From: Heterodontus francisci
Lineage: Eukaryota
Direction of reading: 5' to 3'
NCBI RefSeq assembly: GCF_036365525.1
Contig: NC_090413.1
Coordinates: 20,072,151 to 20,136,150 of the forward strand
Length of the DNA: 64,000 nucleotides
The position numbers were made by a program, and so were the translations under genes. Position 1 is the first letter of the stretch. Every line of letters starts with the position of its first letter. The notes under the pieces are model-generated. The model was not told where the DNA came from. It did not search any database and saw only the letters and a list, made by a program, of their open reading frames with translations. This document shows positions 21,320 to 62,449 of this stretch, in pieces.

Positions 21320-21502
21320 CTGGAAAACAATTTGAAATTAACAAGGGAATGTAATGAATTTTTTTTTAAATCACGACTCAAGGCCCATCATCTCATTACA
21401 ACATCAAAATACTGTGGAAGCTGGAAATCTGAAATGTAAACAGAAAATTCTGGAAATACTCAGCAGGTCTGGCATCATCTGTGGAGATGGAAACAGAGTT
21501 AA

Positions 21503-30689: not shown

Positions 30690-32508
30690 TGTATAAAAGG
30701 AACTGTATAAAACTGCAAAAGCCGTATAAAACGCTGGTTAGGCCATAGCTGGAGTATTGCGTATAGTTCTGGTCACCGTATTTTGGAAGGACATAATTGC
30801 TCTGGAGAGAGTACAGAGGAGATTTACAAGAATGTTGCCAGGGCTTGGAAGTTGCAGCTTTGAGGAAAGATTGGATAGAGTTATAGAGTCATAGAGTTAT
30901 ACAGCACAGAAACAGGCCCTTCAGCCCATCTTGTCCGTGCCAGCCATCAGGCACCTATCTATTCTAATCCCATTTTCCAGCACTTGGCCCGTAGCCTTGT
31001 ATGCTATGGCGTTTCAAGTGCTCATCTAAATACTTCTTAAATGTTGTGAGGGTTCCTGCCTCTACCACCCATTCAGGCAGTGTGTTCCAGATTCCAACCA
31101 CCCTCTGGGTGAAAAACCTTTTCCTCAAATCCCCTGTAAACCTTCTGCCCTTTACCTTAAATCTATGCCCCCAGTTAGTGACACCTCCGCTAAGGGAAAA
31201 CGTTTCTTCCTGTCTACCCTATCTGTGCTCCTCATAATTTTGTATACCTCAATCAGGTCCCCCCTCAGCCTTCTCTGCTCTGAAGAAAACAACCCTAGCA
31301 CTAATCTCTCTTCATAGCTGAAATGCTCCAGCCCAGGCAACATCCTGGTATATCTCTTCTGCACCCTCTCCAGTGCAATCACATCCTTCCTATAGTGTGG
31401 TTACCAGAACTGTACACAATACTCCAGCTGTGGCCTAACTAACATTTTATACAGCTCCATCATAATCTCCCTGCTCTTATATTCTATGTCTCGGCTAATA
31501 AAGGCAAGTATCCCATATGCCTTCCTAACCACCCTATCTACCTGTGCTGCTGCCTTCAGTGATCTATGGACAAGTAAACTAAGATTGCTCTGACCCTCTG
31601 TACTTCCTAGGGTTCTACCACCCATTCCCTTGCCTTGTTAGTCCTCCCAAAATGCATCACCTCACACTTTTCAGGATTAAATTCCATTTGCCACTGCTCC
31701 GCCCATCTTACCAGCCCTTCTATATCGTCCTGTAATCTAAGGCTTTCCTCCTCACTATTTACAACACCACCAATTTTTGTGTCATCTGTGAACCTACTGA
31801 TCATACCTCCTATATTTATGTCTAAATTATTAATGTACACTACAAACAGCAGGGGTCCAAGCACTGATCCCTGTAGTACACCACTGGTCACAGACTTCCA
31901 ATCACAAAAACAACCCTCAACCATCACCCTCTGCCTCCTGCCACTAAGCCAATTTTGGATCCAATTTGCCAAATTGCCCTGGATCCCATGGGCTGTTACC
32001 TTCTTGACCAATCTCCCATCGGGGACCTTATCAAAGGCCGTAAGTCCATGTAGACTACATCAACTGCTTTACTCTCATCTACACATCTAGGGTAGGGTTG
32101 TTTTCCTTAGAACAGAGGAGGCTGAAGGGTGACTTAATTGAGGTGTACAAAATTATGCGGGGTCTAGATAGAGTAGACAGGAAGGACCTGTTTTCCCTAG
32201 CAGAGAGGTCAATTACCAGGGGTCACGGATTTAAGGCGATTGGTAGAAAGATTAGTGGAGACATAAGGAAAAACATTTTCACCGAGAGGGTGGTGGGTGT
32301 CTGAAATTCACTGCCAGGAATGGTGGTGGAGGCAGACACCTCAACTCATTTAAAAGGTACCTGGACATGCAGCTGAAGTGCTGTAACCGGCAAGGCTACG
32401 GACCAAGTGCTGGAAGGTGGGATTAGATTGGGCGGCTAGTTTTTTTGGCCGGCATGGACACAATGGGCTGAATGGCTTCCTTCTGTGATGTAATTTTTCT
32501 ATGGTTCT
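30690..32508 (+). mobile_element. CR1 3' fragment interrupted by a second, antisense CR1
   Basis: YKTLVRP.LEYC...EERLD (ends ~30878) resumes as GLFSLEQRRLKGDL at ~32091. Confidence 0.85.
30879..32090 (-). mobile_element. CR1 LINE, 5'-truncated (~1.2 kb, RT C-terminal half)
   Basis: ORFs 31607-32011 (SGVLQGSVLGP, FTDDTK), 31401-31625 and 31152-31382; CR1 tail. Confidence 0.92.
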
Positions 32509-32540
32509 AACTTAAGGTCATCCAAAACTCTGCTGCCAAT

Positions 32541-32798
32541 TGTAATGAGTTCTTTTTATGTTGCCTGATGCAACATACATGAAATGCAGGGAGTCCAGTT
32601 GTTGAGGACCTCAAACAGGTTTATTAAACAGCTAAACTATTATGTACAGCACAGAGCTAACTATGAACAGAACCTCACTCTTGGTGTTACAGTTACAAAG
32701 TGACACAACTTTGGGTCACATGACTACATCCTGGTACTTAGCTGATTAGCATATTATGATCTTAAAGGGATATCACTCTTAAAGGCAATCAAACAACA
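32541..32798 (-). repeat. 3' LTR
   Basis: tgtaatgagt...aaacaaca; roughly 85% identical to 35825-36083 by eye; AATAAA on the minus strand. Confidence 0.93.
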
Positions 32799-32812
32799 GT
32801 CCCCTTCTTTCC
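32799..32812 (-). other. Polypurine tract
   Basis: GGAAAGAAGGGGAC on the minus strand, directly abutting the 3' LTR. Confidence 0.85.
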
Positions 32813-32961
32813 AAAGATAAGTCTTATATGCTAAAAGTAAAAACAGCTAACATTGGATAACATCAAAATTATTTACACATGGATAGAGATTGTGAAATTC
32901 ACAAATACAGAGGCTCAAATTTCAATATATCGTCTCGGTGGTTTGACAACTCTCGCTCGGG

Positions 32962-33400
32962 GAGTTTGTGTCTCATTTGTTGCTGTTTTCCTGAAGTTTC
33001 TCCCTCTCTGCATTCAGTTTCTGTTGCTCTGCCTTCAGCCTGCTAACATACTTGGTTGCTTTTCTCAAGATGACTGCTTTTGGGTCTTTGTCATTCTTGG
33101 AAAGTTCCGGCACCTCATCTCGAAGAGCTAACAGACAATGCTTCAACTCATTCCTCCTCTGCCTCTTCAGGGCATTGCATGTCCTTTGCCTCTCCTCATC
33201 CTTCGCGTCTGAAGGCCTGGGGCTTAAGGTCAAGGACTTGTTGGGGGAGGAGGACTTGACCTCATGGAGATACCTGTCCATTCTGGCTCATAGTGGTGCT
33301 GGCGGTTTTCTATAGAGCAGAAGTGGCATAGTTGTGCAGTTGCTGAGTTTCCAGACTGCATTGTTTGATGCTGGCCAGAGTCTGCGAGCAGGTTCCAGTC
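32962..33400 (-). pseudogene. Captured Myc-family C-terminus (MBIV, NLS-like region, bHLH-LZ), degenerate
   Basis: IKQC....QQLHNYA (Myc box IV); PPAPL*ARMD (NLS-like); [61 protein letters not shown]; after a frameshift, QQQMRHKL. Confidence 0.9.
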
Positions 33401-33419
33401 CTTGAAGATTTCCCCTTGG

Positions 33420-33760
33420 CAATGCTCTCGTGGATAGTTATGATGTTGAGGTCCTTACATGCTAGCAGTCCTGCCACTGCTGGTCTGTTAGTGTCTACTT
33501 GATAGAATGTTTGTGCTTTCCGTACTGACTTGCCGTATCTGCATTGCATTGTTAGTGTGCCAATGCAAGGATGGGTGATCCATTGTATGCAGATAACTTG
33601 GCAGTTTTCAGTTGTATCAATGATTTCCAACAACTCTGGTACATATCTTTGAGGATTCGGACTGGATATTTACACTACCGCCAGTGTCAATCTTGACTCT
33701 GAGTTTATGTTTGCCAGCTTTCTTTGGGCACATGATGTTAATAATGGCAAAAACGTCCAG
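33420..33760 (-). pseudogene. Retrotransposon aspartic protease
   Basis: LRVKIDTGGSVNI catalytic motif; the C-terminal IGT....C...F..V.......GL.AC.DL.II lies in another frame. Confidence 0.85.
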
Positions 33761-33989
33761 TTGTTTGAATTCATCAACATGATGTATAAGGTTCACAATG
33801 TGGAATGCCTGATTGTCTTCTGGCTGAGAATTACTTCTCTCTGAGTCTTCTCTCAGGTCTGTTTCACTGTGGACTTCATGTATCGGCTTGTGTTTACACA
33901 AGTCTTGGGAGATCTGCTGCTGTTGCCCTGTTTCTGCACCTGTCGTCAGTTTGCCTGCACCCTACTGTGACTTCTGGCTGTGTCTTCAG

Positions 33990-34692
33990 AGCCAGATTTC
34001 TTGCATAGGTGGGCCCAGTGTCCTTTTACACCACACGCCTTGCACAGGTCTTGAAATTCTTGAGCAAGTTCGCCGTGAGTGGGACCAATCACACTTACCA
34101 CACTGCTTACTTGATCTTTTCGACCTGGTTATCATGCCGATACTGTTGGCTGCACTTAGTGCTTGCAGATGCTGTTGTCCAGCTACAATGGCTTCATATT
34201 TTCTGCCATCTTCCAGCAGTGCATCAATGCTGTGACCTTTCTTTTTCTCCAAGAGGTCTTTCTGGAATGCTTCAATGGGTGTTGATACAATCACCAACTC
34301 CATTATTTGGTCTGACAGCTCAGCTTCTGAGAAGTCGCATTCATTGCCCTTACTATGGCATCTACTGACAAACTGGTCTATTGATTCCTGTGGCTGTTGC
34401 CTGTAGGGCATCAATTCCAGGCGGTGAATTGTAAAATTCACTCTTAATCTGAGCTGATCTTCTAGCACTTTCCATATCTTTGCAGGAGCTTTCTGGTCTT
34501 CTTCAGATATGCCCGACTTATTGATTCTGTGTAATCCCTCATTCCTAATTGCTATCATTATTTTTACAGCTTGCTTTTCTGGTTCTGTAATTTCTTGGTC
34601 TATGAAGTGTAACGACATTTTTGCTTGAACAATTGGAACTCAGATAGGATATCAATGGCCTTCCAGTTCATGCTGGGAAGTTTGGTATCCAT
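33990..34692 (-). pseudogene. Retrotransposon Gag (frameshifted)
   Basis: ATG at 34692 (MDTKLPSMNWKA...), RQQPQESIDQFVSRC...C.F motif, zinc knuckles CGKCDWSHSRRTC and CKACGVKGHWAHLC. Confidence 0.88.
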
Positions 34693-34888
34693 CTTCCTGC
34701 TATTCTTTTGCTTTCAAACTTGCTTTAAGATCTTGCTTTATGTCTCTGTACTGCTTTCCCTTTAAAAAAAATTCTCTTGGTTGCTTTGATTGGCAGGAGC
34801 AGGTGTTTAGCAGTGCTTGTCTGTTTCTCCAGCTTCCAGCACTCTAGTCTGTCTGTTTACACAGCTGTGCAATAGGCATTTTAAGTGA

Positions 34889-35212
34889 ATAAAAGCAAAA
34901 TACTGCAGCTGCTGGAAATCTGAAATAAAAACAGAAAGTGCTGGAAATACTCAGCAGGTCAGGTAGCATCTGTGGAGAGAGAAGCAGAGTTAACATTTCA
35001 GGTCTGTGGGTTTGTAGCATCTGTGGAGAGAGGAGCAGAGTTAACATTTCAGGTCTGTGGGTTTGTAGCATCTGTGGAGAGAGAAGCAGAGTTAACATTT
35101 CTCTCTGATGTGGGTTCTGATGAAAGGTCACAGACCTGAGATGTTAACTTTTCTTCTGTCTCCACAGATGCAGCCTGACCTCTGAGTATTTCCAACACTT
35201 TCTGTTTTTATT
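34889..35212. mobile_element. Palindromic Penelope-type short element with an internal 51-bp tandem triplication, inserted in the LTR element leader
   Basis: The arms aataaaaacagaaagtgctggaaatactcag...gttaac and gttaac...ctgagtatttccaacactttctgtttttatt are inverted; partial copies at ~15170, 21406 and 60518. Confidence 0.7.
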
Positions 35213-35788
35213 TTACGCATTTTAAGTGCTTTTTTTCTCTGCTAGTATTTGTTTATACAGACGTTCAATAAACAATTCTTCACGCTTGAGTGATTTTGAG
35301 AGTTTTTAAAACTCTGGCTAAATGAATGAAAGCTCTTCACGCCTGAGTGGTTTAATTATTTTTTTTAAAGCTTTAGCTGCAAGCTGTGTGAATGGAGGAT
35401 TCCCATTCTTTTTGCTGTTGGGTGCCTCCTGTAATGGCGCGGACCTTGATCACCCTGGGCAAGATGGATACAGTTGGTTAGCCTGAGATAGGGATTGGGT
35501 TTTCCCTTTTTTTTCTTTTACTGAGCTTTTAAAAAAATCAACTTTGCAAGCACCTCAAAGCTTTCTTTCAGCGGGGATTCCTGGACCATTGGGACAATGA
35601 CTCATCCAATCTCAGTGATTGATTTGCAGCCTGTCATTCAGTACTCTGTCTTCCACAGCTTGAGGTAAGTGTTTTCTTCTTTCCCTGTTTGGGCTAGTAG
35701 TTTTTAAAAAACTTTCTCGCTTTTAGCTGTAGGTGGGTAGTTTTTAAAGCTTTTACCTGTGGTCTTCAGCTTGGACTTTGTGTTCTCA

Positions 35789-35803
35789 CCACAGCTGCCA
35801 CCA
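35789..35803 (-). other. Primer-binding site, tRNA-Leu-like
   Basis: TGGTGGCAGCTGTGG follows an LTR end (...ATTACA) on the minus strand; complementary to the ...CCACCGCTGCCACCA 3' end of tRNA-Leu with one mismatch. Confidence 0.75.
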
Positions 35804-35824
35804 TGTAATGAGGAGCTGCCACTA

Positions 35825-36083
35825 TGTAATGAGTTATTTTTATGTTGTCTGATGCAATATAAATGAGTTGCGTGGAGTCCAGCTGTTGAAGACCTCAAGC
35901 AGGTTTATTAAACAGCTAAGCTATTATGTACAGTACAGAGCTAACTATTAACAGAACCTCACTCTTGGTGCTACAGTTACAGAGTGACTCTGTCTTCAAG
36001 TCACATGACTATGCCCTGCTACTTAGCTCATTTGCGTACAAAGATCTAAAAGGGATATCACTCTTAAAGGCAATCGCACAACA
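35825..36083 (-). repeat. 5' LTR
   Basis: tgtaatgagt...gcacaaca, followed by the CCAAT TSD. Confidence 0.93.
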
Positions 36084-36953
36084 CCAATGTTCTAATTTGC
36101 ACCAAGTCCTGCTCACCCATCACCCTTGTGCTCGCTGACCTACATTGGCTCCCAGTTAAGCAATGCCTCAAGTTTAAAATTCTCATCTTTGCTTTCAAGT
36201 CCCTCCATGGACTCTCCCCTCCCTATCTAGTCTTCACACTACACAACACTGCAAGATCTCTGCACTGCTCCAATTCTGGCCTCTTGCACATCTCTGATTT
36301 TAATAACTCCACCATTGGCAACCATGCCTTCAGCTGCCTATGCCCCAAGTTCTGGAATCTCGACCTCTCTCCTCCTTTAAAACGCTCCTTAAAACTCCTC
36401 TTTGACCAGGATTTTGGCCATCTGCCTAATATCACCTCATGTGGCTCAGTGTCAAATTTTGTTTTATAATGCTCCTGTCAAGCACCTTTGGACTTTTTAA
36501 TTACATCAAAGGTGTGATACAAATACAAGTTCTTGTTGTCTGTTATCTTGTCAGCCCAACATTGTGACGGAACTAAATTCTCATAGTGACCATTGTTAAT
36601 CTAAGGCAGTTCAGATGGGTGCATATTAATTCAGTTTTTGTGTGCTGTTAGACTGCTGCCCAGTTGCTATTCTAAACACTTCACATTTTGGCAAAAATAT
36701 TCAGCAGAAATGGTCGAATAAATTGAACAGAACAGTCTCAAAGTTAATTACTGTTCTTTTAATAGACTGTAAGAGCAGAAAAATTAAAAGGGAATTTCAT
36801 TTTCTCTTCACTCCCCTCTACTCAGGAAGACTTTGACTCTTTGCTAGATTATAGTAAAAATATAGAAAGCCCCTTAGAAGATATTAAGCTATTAGAATTT
36901 ACATATAGATTTTGAATTGCAAGGAGGTGGCAAATTATTGCGTCGGTTCTGTC

Positions 36954-40812: not shown

Positions 40813-43575
40813 TCAAACAACAAAGAACAGTACAGCACAGGAACAGGCCAGTCGGCCCTCCAAGCCTGCGCCGATCTTGAAGCCTGCCTAAACTAAAACC
40901 TTCTGCACTTCCGGGGACTGTATCCCTCTATTCCCATCCTATTCATGTATTTGTCAAGATGCCTCTTAAACGTCATTATCGTACCTGCTTCCACCACCTC
41001 CCTTGGCAGCAAGTTCCAGGCACGCACCACCCTCTGTGTAAAGAACTTGCCTCGCATATCCCCTCTAAACTTTGCCCCTCTCACCTTAATCCTATGTCCG
41101 CTAGTAACTGACTCTTCCACCCTGGGAAAAAGCTTCTGACTATCCACTCTGTCCATGCTGCTCATAACTTTGTAAACCTCTATCATGTTACCCCTCCACC
41201 TCCGTCGTTCCAGTGAAAACAATCCGAGTTTATCCAACCTCTCCTCATAGCTAATGCCCTCCAGACCAGGCAACATCCTGGTAAACCTCTTCTGTACCCT
41301 CTCCAAAGCCTCCACGTCCTTCTGGTAGTGTGGCAACCAGAATTGCACGCAATATTCTAAGTGTGGCCTGACTAAAGTTCTGTACAGCTGCAGCATGACT
41401 TGCCAATTTTTATACTCTATGCCCCGACCGATGAAGGCAAGCATGCTGTATGCCTTCTTGACTACCTTATCCACCTGCGTTGCCACTTTCAGTGACCTGT
41501 GGACCTGTACGCCCAGATCTCTCTGCCTGTCAAAGTGTTCTGCCATTTACTGTATACTTTCCACCTGCATTAGATCTTCCAAAATGCATTACCTCACATT
41601 TGTCCGGATCAAACTTCATCTGCCATTTCTCCGCCCGAGTCTCCAACCGATCTATATCCTGCTGTATCCTCTGACAATCCTCATCACTATCCGCAACTCC
41701 ACCAACCTTTGTGTCGTCCGCAAACTTACTAATCAGGCCAGCTATATTTTCCTCCAAATCATTTATATATACTACAAACAGCAAAGGTCCCAGCACTGAT
41801 CCCTGCGGAACACCACTAGTCACATCCCTCCATTCAGAAAAGCACCCTTCCACTGCTACCCTGTCTTCTATGACAGAGCCAGTTCTGTATCCATCTTGCC
41901 AGCTCACCTCTGATCTCGTGTGACTTCACCTTTTGTACCAGTCTGCCATGAGGGACCTTGTCAAAGGCTTTACTGAAGTCCATATAGATAACATCCATTG
42001 CCCTTCCTTCATCAATCATCTTTGTCACTTCCTCAAAAAACTCAATCAAATTAGTGAGACATGACCTCCCCTTCACAAAACCATGCTGCCTCTCACTGAT
42101 AAGTTCGTTTGTTTCCAAATGGGAGTAAATCCTGTCCCGAAGAATCCTCTCCAATAATTTCCCTACCACTGACGTAAGGCTCACCGGCCTATAATTTCCT
42201 GGATTAGGCTTGCTACCCTTCTTAAACAAAGGAACAATATTGGCTATTCTCCAGTCCTCTGGGACCTCACCTGTAGCCAATGAGGATGCAAAGATTTCTG
42301 TCAAGGCCCCAGCAATTTCTTCCCTTGCCTCCCTCAGTATTCTGGGGTAGATCCCATCAGGCCCTGGGGACTTATCTACCTTAATGCTTTGCAAGACACC
42401 CAACACCTCCTCCTTTTTGATAATGAGATGACTGAGACTATCTACACTCCCTTTCCTAGACTCATCATCTACCAAGTCCTTCTCTTTGATGAATACTGAT
42501 GCAAAGTACTCATTTAGTACCTCGCCCATTTCCTCTGGCTCCACACGTAGATTCCCTTCTCTGTCCTTGAGTGGGCCAACCCTTTCCCTAGTTACCCTCT
42601 TGCTCTTTATATACATATAAAAAGCCTTGGGATTTTCCTTAATCCTGTTTGCCAATGACTTTTCATGACCCCTTTTAGCCCTCCTGACTCCTTGCTTAAG
42701 TTCCTTCCTACTGTCTTTATATTCCTCAAGGGATTCGTCTGTTCCTAGCCTTCCAGCCCTTACGAATGTTTCCTTTTTCGTTTTGACTAGGCTCACAATA
42801 TCCCACGTTATCCAAGGTTCCCGAAACTTGCCAGACTTATCCTTCTTCCTCACAGGAACATGCTGGTCCTGGATTCTGATCAACTGACATTTGAAAGACT
42901 CCTACATGTCAGATGTTGATTTACCCTCAAACAGCCGGCCCCAATCTAAATTCTTCAGTTCCTGCCTAATATTGTTATAATTTGCCTTCCCCCAATTTAG
43001 CACCTTCACCCGAGGACTACTCCTATCCTTATCCACAAGTACCTTAAAACTTAAGGAATTATGGTCACTGTTCCCGAAATGCTCCCCTACTGAGACTTCG
43101 ACCATCTGGCCGGGCTCATTTCCCAATACCAGGTCCAGTACGGCCCCATCCCTAGTTGGACTATCTACATATTATTTCAAGAAGCCCTCCTGGATGCTCC
43201 TTACAAATTCTGCCCCATCCAAGCCACTAGCACTAAGTGAGTCCCAGTCAATATAGGGGAAGTTAAAATCACCCACCACTACAACCCTGTTACCTTTACA
43301 TCTTTCCAAAATCTGTCTACATATCTGCTCCTCTACCTCCCGCTGGCTATTGGGAGGCCTGTAGAAAACCCCAACATAGTGACTGCACCCTTCCTATTCC
43401 TGAGCTCCACCTATATTGCCTCACTGCATGACCCCTCCGAGGTGTCCTCCCGCAGTATAGCTGTGATATTCTCCTTAACCAGTAATGCAACTCCCCCACC
43501 CCTTTTACATCCCCCTCTATCCCGCCTGAAGCTTCTAAATCCTGGAACATTTAGCTGCCAATCTTGTCCTTTCCT
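40813..43575 (-). mobile_element. Young CR1 LINE, 5'-truncated (~2.8 kb: partial endonuclease, RT, 3' UTR)
   Basis: ORFs 41834-42883 (KSPGPDGIYP, NYRPVSLTS, DFSKAFDKVPH), 41530-41907 (FADDTK), 40893-41546 and 42902-43126 (SDHN); few frameshifts. Confidence 0.95.
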
Positions 43576-57580: not shown

Positions 57581-58261
57581 CAAAAGAACAAAGAACAGGT
57601 GGATAAGGTAGTCAAGAAGGCATATGGCATGCTTGCCTTCATCGGTCGGGGCATCGAGTATAAAAATTGGCAAGTCATGTTGCAGCTGTACAGAACCTTA
57701 GTTAGGCCACACTTAGAATATTGCGTGCAATTCTGGTTGCCACACTACCAGAAGGACGTGGAGGCTTTGGAGAGGGTACAGAGGAGGTTTACCAGGATGT
57801 TGCCTGGTCTGGAGGGCATTCGCTCTGAGGAGAGGTTGGAAAAACTCGGATTGTTTTCACTGGAACGACGGAGGTGGAGGGGCGAAATGATAGAGGTTTA
57901 CAAAGTTATGAGCGGCATGGACAGAGTGGATAGTCAGAAGCTTTTTCCCAGGGTGGAAGAGTCAGTTACTAGGGAACGTAGGTTTAAGGTGCGAGGGGCA
58001 AAGTTTAGAGGGGATGTGCGAGGCAAGTATTTTACACAGAGGGTGGTGAGTGCCTGGAACTTGCTGCCGGGGGAGGTGGTGGAAGCAGGTACGATAGCGA
58101 CGTTTAAGAGACATCTTGACAAATACATGAATAGGATGGGAATAGGGGGATACGGTCCCCGGAAGTGCAGAACTTGTTAGTTTAGGCAGGCATCAAGATC
58201 GGCGCAGGCTTGGAGGGCTGAATGGCCTGTTCCTGTGCTGTACTGTTCTTTGTTCTTTCTT
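57581..58261 (+). mobile_element. Young CR1 3' fragment with a 10-bp TSD
   Basis: ORF 57560-58180 is nearly identical to 40893-41546; TGGATTGGTA at 57571-57580 and 58262-58271. Confidence 0.93.
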
Positions 58262-59710: not shown

Positions 59711-62449
59711 AAGGTAGGTAGGTTTACGATTAGTTCTGGAGGTGTAAAGAGAAAAGTAGAAGAAACGTTTTCATGTGAAACACTGAGGAAGTTCACCCCA
59801 AGTAGCAACTGAAGCAAATAAAGTTCAAGAGGGAGTTTGATAAATATTTTGGGGAGGGGTGGAATATTAATAGTGGTTGGTGCAGTCTCCCATACCTGGG
59901 CTGCCTTGCACCCAATATACTGTTATACCAGCACCATTTTTTTAAAAAAGTAATTGTTCAGCTGCCTTGGCCCTAAGCTCTGGAATGCCATCCCTACACC
60001 TTTCTGTCTCTTTCTCTGTCTTCCTTTACGACACACCTTTTTAAAATGACCTCTTTGGTCAAGCTTTTGGTCACCTATCACACTATTTTCTTTAGTGCCC
60101 TGATAGATTTTGGTAATGCTCCTGTTGAGCTGCTTATAGAGCTTTTTAATGTCGTATCTAAATGCAGTTCAACTACACTGACGATTCAGACTCTCTGCTG
60201 TTACGGACAGGGTCACATTGGTGCCAAGCAAGTTCTGTCTTCACAACCCCACTGTGTTTGTGCATGCTGACTGTTACTGTGTTCTGCTCACTGGCATTTG
60301 TGGAAGATGCCTTTGTGGATGCTTTATCCACATCCTTCACTCCGTCTGTGCACATATTGATGCTTAAACGGGACTCAGTGCCCTGAGGTACAATACACCC
60401 ATGTTTCCAGTGAGCATCCAAGATAACGGCTGCTGTTAAATAATATTTGGTTCATCAACCCATCATCTAATGTGGCAGGCTGATGCTGAAATTAGTAATT
60501 TCAAGATTCAATTGGCTAAATACTGCAGATGCTGGAAATCTGAAATGTAAACAGAAAATGCTGGGAGTGCTTAGGCCAGGCATCATCTGTGGGAGAAAAA
60601 AGGTTGGGGTGAAACATAGCCCTGTTTCATAAGTCTGGACTCTTAAAAGGGCGATTTTAGCTTTAAATGCTTTGACTGCCCTGTTCAGGGACTGAAGAAT
60701 AGCTTTCTCGGTCCCTCTTCAAGTGTCCAGTGTGCGCTCTCCTGCTCTGAAGCAGCTGAGTTCAGTAGGAAGTGGTAGAGCAACTAGCCAAATGGATTTC
60801 TGTTTCCTGCACCTCTTCTGCCCACAGTTTAAAAGATGATTCAGTGGGGGGCTTGGGGAAAGCAAGCGTGAGGAGTATACTCAGCTGTTCAATGTTTGTT
60901 CTCTGGGAGGGGCTGTGGGGAAAGCAGTGGAATCCAGTTTCTCTGCAGACGATGTGGCGCTGTGTGGGTTGGAGCAGTTTGTGAGTTCTCCTGAATATGA
61001 AACTTTCCATTCATTGCAACAGTTGAAAAGTAATTCATCAGCTGTCAAGTGCTTTGGGATGACCTGAGTTTGTGAAAGGCGCTTTTAAGTCTCTTTGCTT
61101 TCCCTCCTTCTGTCCAAAATGTCAGGAGACCAAGGCTCTATTTATATTGTGCCTTTCAGGTCCTCAGACTCTCAAAGTGCGTTGCATCCAATGAATTGTT
61201 TTTTGAAGAGTGGTCAAGGTTTTTGTCGGCAAATGTTACAGCCAATTTTCACAAGCAGGCTCCCACAAACAGCAGCGATTTGTTTCTGTCAGTGCTGATG
61301 TTGATCAGGATGCATGGGGATCTTTTGCATCCACTTGAACAGGCAAGCGGGGCATCGGTTTAACGTCTTGTCTGAAAGATGATGCCTCTGACGATGCTGC
61401 ACTCTCGCTACTGCAGTGAAGTACCAGCCTAGATTCTGAAGTCCTGGGACGACCTCAAATCCATGATGATCTGGCATTTTTTTTTTGTTTCATGGGATTT
61501 GGGCGTCATTGGCCAGGCCAGCATTTATTGCCCATCCCTAATTGCCCATGAGAAGGTGGTGGTGAGCTGCCTTCTTGAACTGCTGCAGTCCATGTGGAGT
61601 AGGTACACCCACAGTGCTGTTGGGAAGGGAGTTCCAGGATTTTGACCCAGCAACAGTGAAGGAATGGCGATATAGTTCCATGTCAGGATGGTGTGTGACT
61701 TGGAGGGGAATTTGCAGACAATGTTCTGTTCTTGTCTGTCTAGGTGGAAGAGGTTGTGGGGTTGGAAGGAGGTGTTTTGAGTTGCTGCAGTGCATCTTGT
61801 AGATGATATACACTGCTGCCACTGTCATTGGTGGAGGGAGTGTATGTTTTAAGGTGGTGAATGGGGTGCCAATCAAACAGGCTGCTTTGTCCTGGAAGAT
61901 GTCAAGCTTCCTGACTGGTGGTGGCGGCGGCAAGGTTAGTAAGATCTGAACCCAGTTGAGAATCTCTTGTTCCCACACCCCTGATGAATGTCTGCCCATC
62001 TGTAACAGCAGGCTTGATTCATTCTTGGAACTGTTTTTTGGGGGGCAGGATTGTAAATTGCCTCGCCAACATTAAAGGCAGAGCGTGCAGGTAATATCGC
62101 AAACTATTACCAAACATTACACTCCAGAACAAGGCACCGTGAAATATTTCATGTTTTGTATTATTTTAGATGAGAGGAATCTTGCTCAAAATGATTTTCG
62201 TATCAATCGATACTGCTGTAGGAAGAGGCGGGAGTCTGATTTGTGACAAACTGACTTGTATTGGTTTAGTGGACCGACCCAGAGACTTTGATTTTATGTA
62301 GCATTATTATTCCTTTGCTGTTTGTGGGAGCTTGTTGGGGGCAATATGGCTGCCGTATTTCCTGCATTACAACAGTGATTACTCTTCAGTGAAGTATGTC
62401 ACTGGCTGTAAAGTGCTTTGTGATGTCCTGAGGTCATGAAAGACACTAC

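Follow-up and report, generated by a model that had tools for sequence, protein, structure and literature searches.

The window, a stretch of 64,000 nucleotides from the horn shark Heterodontus francisci, contains a 3.54-kb LTR element on the minus strand that encloses the studied region and represents one decayed, non-autonomous copy of Ty3/Gypsy type. Its parts are listed below in window positions, from the 5' end of the element to its 3' end.

36084..36088, no strand: upstream target-site duplication of 5 bp; the identical 5-mer flanks the element on both ends
35825..36083, minus strand: 5' LTR of 259 bp with TG...CA ends; 85.9% identity to the 3' LTR (K2P 0.151)
35789..35824, minus strand: PBS-like TGG-initiated motif, locally duplicated in the window copy; it abuts the 5' LTR here and in other copies
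34888..35214, no strand: later SINE-like insertion with short tandem repeats, foreign to the element; alignment gap 34887-35214 against other copies
33960..34692, minus strand: gag with one CCHC zinc knuckle (~34000-34050) and frameshifts at 34619 and 34071; from anchors and a zf-CCHC_3 match (E 8.7e-5, below Pfam's cut-off)
33428..33760, minus strand: retropepsin-type aspartic protease, DTG motif at 33691; frame broken at 33665, at 33570 and, upstream, at 33915
33427..33428, minus strand: type C protease/mych junction, in frame, with 1-nt microhomology; from sequence comparison with sister copies and the host CDS
32965..33427, minus strand: captured mych segment, codons 200/201-357; 89.6% identity to the host CDS
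33033..33185, minus strand: HLH domain inside the mych segment (PF00010, E 1.1e-10)
32915..32964, minus strand: what is left of the integrase C-terminus, including the native pol stop; the same tail closes RT-bearing copies
32800..32815, minus strand: polypurine tract, immediately preceding the 3' LTR
32541..32798, minus strand: 3' LTR; 85.9% identity to the 5' LTR
32536..32540, no strand: downstream target-site duplication of 5 bp, matching the upstream 5-mer

Two TG...CA LTRs, a short target-site duplication, a PBS-like motif and a polypurine tract place the copy among Ty3/Gypsy LTR elements, and a matching 5-bp duplication was found for both the window copy and L026. Env was absent between the integrase and the 3' LTR: the integrase tail of the window copy ends about 115 nt before the LTR, and in L104, L105 and L108 the integrase is followed by the same tail and LTR. 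The identity of the protease rests on its position, its DTG motif and the ESM Atlas features of a sister copy, L106 (0.95 with RVP_2/gag-asp_protease clusters, the best 10 of 10 matches belonging to one clan); a Pfam search of four open sister stretches and of the protease part of the RefSeq model P0006 found no protease. The catalytic Asp is retained in 112 of the tallied copies.

Several side observations concern repeats in and around the element. The short duplication of LTR end and PBS-like motif (35789-35824) also occurs in L008, L019 and L020 and is possibly a sub-lineage marker, while the SINE-like insert (34888-35214), situated in the element leader, consists of three tandem units of ~51 nt and has relatives at 21400-21502 and 60511-60613. 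An older LINE-like fragment, presumably CR1/L2-like, appears to flank the target-site duplication (32500-32540 and 36084-36470), the element having seemingly inserted into it. Elsewhere in the window, an inverted pair of 663 nt with 94% identity (40815-41477 / 57596-58258) is far younger than most window repeats.

The mych segment comprises box IV with its QHNY motif, the NLS region, the bHLH domain and most of the zipper, and its bHLH-Zip has c-Myc as the top PDB match (E 2e-18; Max, 1e-6). The original prediction was that a single ORF runs from the protease into Myc, and the peptides it quoted lie in a stop-free minus-strand frame of 119 aa (33669-33310). This frame does exist, and the joint at 33428/33427 is in frame with host mych codon 200/201, but the true gag-pro-myc frame is confined to 33570-33326: a 1-nt break at 33570 leaves the part of the ORF before it in a shifted frame, and an 8-nt deletion at 33325, right after the QHNY motif, throws it off the myc frame. 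Further on come a TGA at mych codon 249 and, at 32990, the loss of one nucleotide; the frame of the window copy accordingly never enters the bHLH-Zip. Measured against open sister stretches and the host CDS, it is broken in at least eight places (34619, 34071, 33915, 33665, 33570, 33325, mych codon 249 and 32990). Sequence searches of the 119-aa ORF against Pfam and the PDB returned nothing credible.

Donor gene and chimeric family

The nearest cellular protein is the H. francisci 'myelocytomatosis oncogene homolog' (mych, RefSeq P0001), which matches a two-exon locus on contig C16 of the same genome at 98-99%; mych is described as a fish-specific myc paralog (PMC11457510). We rejected c-myc and N-myc as donors, mych being far closer. 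The host gene has an intron near codon 184 that is missing from the type A and type B copies, which cross its position, and it was therefore a spliced mych mRNA that was captured. Whereas the host gene is the donor, the copies are intronless, hold only codons 120, 133 or 200 to 357, and are fused to gag-pro.

After removal of 17 duplicates we counted 150 distinct loci, namely 33 of type A, 45 of type B, 58 of type C (the window copy among them), 9 without myc and 5 'other' loci without a scorable joint. Type A has 138 nt of linker and RT start with mych from codon 120, type B has 46 nt of pol-side sequence with mych from codon 133, and type C has no linker and mych from codon 200/201. (L117 was assigned to A2 by a rough motif rule, although it has a tail of the 108-nt class.) B and C differ by ~247 nt; a spliced intron was considered as the explanation and rejected, the ends not being GT-AG. 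The joint at 33428/33427 is not the original capture point, since other copies extend 46 or 138 nt further into pol and start mych at codon 133 or 120; it belongs to the most trimmed of three subfamilies, from which the protease/RT linker and the acidic box are gone. The original capture comprised mych codons 120-357, in place of RT-RNaseH-integrase.

RT-bearing relatives accompany the chimera. Seven of the nine myc-less loci were extended, and most continue into RT; ORF pieces from L103-L105 give the pol order PR-RT-RNaseH-IN (the protease by Atlas features only), and RVT_1, RT_RNaseH, Integrase_H2C2 and rve occur in Gypsy order. Against the PDB, an RT piece of 133 aa matched 8r0s 'Enzymatic polyprotein' best, followed by 4ol8 and Ty3-G Gag-Pol, and then by Pr125Pol entries. 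In the gag-pro tree type A forms a clade (100/99), and RT-bearing copies do not cluster apart from B and C (500 of 500 shuffles were as low, and two mixed forks are starred); the gag-pro of B and C was probably refreshed from helpers. The myc tree is unresolved, with 2 of 38 branches starred. A query with the protease only (loci L044-L072) returned 27 of 29 myc-bearing and 2 of 29 RT-bearing loci, in a sample biased to the window's subfamily. The chimera may outnumber its helper.

Exact junction motifs were found 105 times for type A (reversed control 3), 214 times for B (control 40) and 544 times for C (control 3), about 820 net. Such motifs are intact in ~0.2-0.4 of the sampled copies, samples which lean towards well-preserved copies, and this suggests a family of at least ~820 and, by extrapolation from motif survival, perhaps 2,000-4,000 copies. 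Among the 120 matches listed for a chimeric model, only H. francisci proteins showed high identity reaching into the protease part, which hints weakly at a lineage-restricted family. LTR pairs diverge by K2P 0.12-0.13 (5 B and 6 C copies). Over 367 nt spanning the joint, a contig of a second organism, X5, aligns to the window copy without gaps and with 7 differences, so that the insertion appears several times older than the split from that organism; a third organism's contig (X7) also spans a type C joint. The sampled copies are old and nearly all broken. In contigs of presumed RNA runs the element is covered and the joint sometimes bridged, with strand and level unreadable and intronic read-through to be expected.

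Two further observations concern individual loci and gene models. Neighbouring myc-bearing pairs with matching features (C2:163681224 and 163831878; C5:114319315 and 114320414) suggest segmental or tandem duplication after insertion. Six H. francisci RefSeq models named 'N-myc-like' or 'myc-like' (P0002, P0004, P0005, P0006, P0008 and P0010) carry protease, RT-start or integrase-tail residues or family substitutions and look like element copies rather than myc paralogs, and P0013, an SLC2A10 model of the same species, starts with ~260 aa of the element's gag and bHLH-Zip fused to a sugar transporter, which is either an annotation artefact or a chimeric transcript.

The reading frame across the junctions

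An important aspect of this family is that its reading frame was largely kept. The original prediction gave an in-frame junction a 1-in-3 chance, which would apply to a lone accident and does not describe what proves to be a family trait: protease and myc share a frame at 49 of the 58 type C loci, at 41 of the 45 of type B and at 18 of the 33 of type A. With only non-spanning queries the counts are 40/44, 6/9 and 5/9, respectively, and 15 of 17 type C joints are in frame in an independent sample drawn by the 3' tail; in type A, off-frame copies show private indels at scattered positions (the linker indels of 13 copies are listed). By the modal spacing of anchors, the gag ATG, knuckle, DTG and protease end lie in a single frame that continues into myc in each of the three subfamilies, which bears out the proposal of a single ancestral gag-pro-myc frame. 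The grounds on which that proposal was to be abandoned, myc lying off-frame in the family or stops shared within it, were looked for and neither was found. A family-wide stop was sought in myc and gag-pro across copies and none was seen: the commonest myc stops arise at CGA codons (48/123, 30/114 and 23/118, never half of the copies) and the commonest gag-pro stop is present in at most 36 of 109.

We regard as shown that a Ty3/Gypsy-type element with a single gag-pol frame swapped RT-RNaseH-integrase for codons 120-357 of a spliced mych mRNA, and that the resulting chimera, which occurs beside RT-bearing relatives, underwent nested trimming (A, B, C), amplification, stepwise loss of key residues and later decay. 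To the full account that we prefer, in which the frame was kept for the element's own replication in cis and the Myc payload was a disarmed in-frame stuffer rather than a tool, we assign an even chance. Capture would have proceeded through two template switches at microhomologies; an RT-bearing helper would have copied the chimera in trans, with repeated swaps of gag-pro between the two; and the variants that spread would be those translated unbroken from the gag ATG almost to the 3' LTR. The need for an open frame in cis might lie in escape from the decay of RNAs with premature stops and long 3' UTRs, or in packaging coupled to translation. Full-length retroviral RNAs with premature stops and long 3' UTRs are described as targets of nonsense-mediated decay (PMC5580461).

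The principal alternative is that the fragment was a pure passenger, captured by chance, with frames owed to microhomology and luck and with residue losses reflecting drift in a few master copies; we consider this rather unlikely. Copies share joints by inheritance, so the independent events are junctions and not copies. Of the seven multi-copy junctions, six preserve the frame (p 0.007-0.036 with priors of 0.33-0.45), seven being a small number of nested events, and this speaks against a passenger, although the three 5' joints taken alone reach only p 0.04-0.065 and are compatible with one. Microhomologies measure 7 nt at the 5' capture (against 7 RT-bearing copies), 6 nt at the 3' capture (against a single copy, L105), 8 nt at the B joint and 1 nt at the C joint, which matches the template-switch pattern described in PMC5131818. 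Microhomology-guided capture is reported as common and requires no function (PMC5131818), and three capture or trimming joints lie at microhomologies coding identical residues on either side, which counts against our preferred account. On the other hand, the type C joint has a mere 1 nt to guide it, and words shared by pol and mych are in frame just 36-45% of the time.

The 3' side is informative in another way. The reading frame passes into that of the integrase tail at the 3' capture joint and likewise in the 204-nt and 108-nt tails. An integrase tail in frame is not needed for Myc function; being useless to Myc, these joints fit a need at the RNA level. The sole off-frame junction is the 35-nt tail shared by A2, B and C, in which (as in the type C remnant, out of frame with myc) translation usually stops ~22 codons on, near the native stop. 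As a control for a frame requirement in cis, a myc-less deletion subfamily was sought and found at 0 of 28 loci, L183 having been dropped as a duplicate of L002; L171 is the window copy.

Fate of the captured Myc domain

c-Myc is reported to contact the E-box through His359, Glu363 and Arg367 (PMC10437117), which align with mych H286, E290 and R294. R294 is retained throughout. E290, the E-box-contacting Glu, is kept in 11/19 A1, 0/33 B and 1/55 C copies, with mostly Lys instead, and in 0/16 of a fresh sample; H286 is kept in 13/19 A1, 7/30 B and 13/55 C copies, counts that are blurred by CpG decay. c-Myc has a strong NLS in the KR cluster following box IV, according to PMC7226237, and K248 of mych (kept in 19/22 A1, 5/37 B and 1/56 C copies) would be the equivalent lysine, judging by alignment. 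L354 of the zipper is kept in 18/22 A1, 13/27 B and 4/53 C copies, P238 is also lost, and C additionally lost I227 along with L354. H286, E290 and L354 do not vary among the cellular Myc-family proteins compared (113 of 113), and P238, I227 and L354 are conserved in 110-113 of 113, mostly mych orthologs. The acidic box, which we take to be MBIIIb, is kept in A and B and absent from C, and the last zipper heptad is cut off in all types.

Shared amino-acid changes are few (5 in B, 9 in C), which suits a passenger, yet they hit base-contact and NLS residues, which does not; that two of the three base contacts are among 5-9 shared changes has p 0.002-0.009 in a test picked after the data were seen. 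Conserved codons amount to 59 of 156 (~38%), and neutral decay would hence also often hit conserved residues. The HLH core has no shared damaging change, which counts against a disarming reading. We estimated dN/dS from pairwise synonymous and non-synonymous differences with CpG-prone codons excluded. Against a post-insertion, within-group baseline of 0.62-0.74, the element-only net value for myc is 0.59 for A1-C (CI 0.21-2.38; the baseline here is 0.62-0.69), 0.39 for A1-B and 0.99 for B-C; no purifying selection on myc was detectable on the element-only branches, at low power and with intervals wide enough for moderate constraint. Values indistinguishable from neutral again agree with a passenger. 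Gag between subfamilies gives 0.21-0.26 (A1-C 0.21, CI 0.10-0.43), which indicates constraint, but we set this aside as evidence on the chimera because the gag-pro of B and C is mixed with that of RT-bearing copies.

The same data can be held against the model of the original prediction, namely that a Myc HLH-Zip, either still part of the polyprotein or freed from it, bound Max but not E-boxes and damped the Myc/Max output of germ cells to the element's benefit. We find this model unlikely, for all that the frame was kept, that trimming always spared box IV and the bHLH-Zip, and that the most trimmed type, C, has the most exact junction matches (544 versus 214 and 105). Its premise of a product without the N-terminal MBI/MBII boxes is sound, as the capture starts at codon 120, and the loss of base contacts beside an intact HLH core is what it would lead one to expect; moreover, an engineered Myc bHLH-Zip mini-protein is cited as a known dominant negative (PMC7226237). 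Against it, no purifying selection was detected in the bHLH-Zip (element-only A1-C 0.50, CI 0.10-8.9, versus a baseline of 0.53-0.62), the NLS lysine is lost in B and C, and the invariant zipper Leu354 is lost in C, with the last heptad missing everywhere. Release at the former PR/RT site is not supported for type C, in which the linker is deleted down to the last protease residues; only A and B retain it, and release of a free Myc is more plausible in type A than in the window's subfamily. That one or more copies were domesticated and work today as truncated mych genes is very improbable, even though RefSeq models at least 6 loci as myc-like proteins and 3 of 108 in-frame copies are open from the protease end through the HLH, given that within-group dN/dS of 0.62-0.74 fits decay, that a few open copies are expected anyway among thousands, and that the window copy has at least eight breaks.

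Returning to the account of a frame kept in cis around a disarmed payload, an open frame under selection would mean that the fusion protein was really made, and the spreading variants would then have lost Myc activity stepwise because a Myc bHLH-Zip is costly in germ cells. The order of loss would have been the base-contact Glu, then the His, the NLS lysine, the acidic box and the zipper leucine. A bolder version, which we put forward only tentatively and consider rather unlikely, is that a germline retrotransposon made a Gag-protease-Myc fusion that evolved under selection to an E-box-blind form, a fossil Myc/Max antagonist (or a record of stepwise disarming) that aided the element's rise to be the dominant form within its family.

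Comparison with known gene captures

Gene capture by LTR elements and capture of myc by avian retroviruses are already known, and for a germline-amplified myc fragment in an env-less retrotransposon no account was found in the literature searched. The literature covered was that outside subscription journals, and an entry in a repeat library (Repbase/Dfam) may exist. The family could be valuable in three respects: it is an ordered record of what becomes of a captured proto-oncogene in a germline, where the frame survived and the DNA contacts and the nuclear signal disappeared; it allows one to test by counting whether an open frame in cis is required by non-autonomous LTR elements; and it explains several horn shark 'N-myc-like' gene models as transposon copies.

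The closest parallel are the LTR-mediated retrocopies of animals described by Tan et al. 2016 (PMC5131818), who also cite HERV-K/FAM8A1 and maize Bs1. As in those cases, part of a spliced mRNA has taken the place of internal ORFs in an LTR element: the shark chimera has lost the intron and shows microsimilarity at either switch point (7 and 6 nt, compared with a median of 6 bp in that work); like the retrocopy chimeras treated there, it is a non-autonomous element that could be retroposed again. The cases set out in that source are single or few loci, however, whereas the shark chimera has at least ~820 and probably thousands of copies, nested in-frame trimmed subfamilies and a transcription factor domain of the myc family.

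A second parallel are engineered dominant negatives. Omomyc and related Myc bHLH-Zip proteins likewise consist of the Myc C-terminal domain without the transactivation domain (PMC7226237). Omomyc dimers are described there as binding E-boxes, whereas the B and C copies, known here from their sequence, are without the last heptad, part of the NLS and two of the three residues that contact bases.

The third parallel is retroviral. The carrier in the shark is an env-less Ty3/Gypsy-type element, germline-fixed and non-infectious, and its donor is mych. Among the avian viruses, OK10 produces a gag-pol-myc fusion. MC29, CMII, OK10 and MH2 resemble the chimera in being replication-defective and helper-dependent, with cell-derived myc fused to gag (stated for MC29; PMC13431497). 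The shark copies are the opposite of an activated oncogene: the captured myc starts at codon 120 without the transactivation boxes, and the DNA-contact residues E290 and H286 are lost in B and C. If the fusion was indeed selected to be E-box-blind, it would be the mirror image of retroviral v-myc capture.
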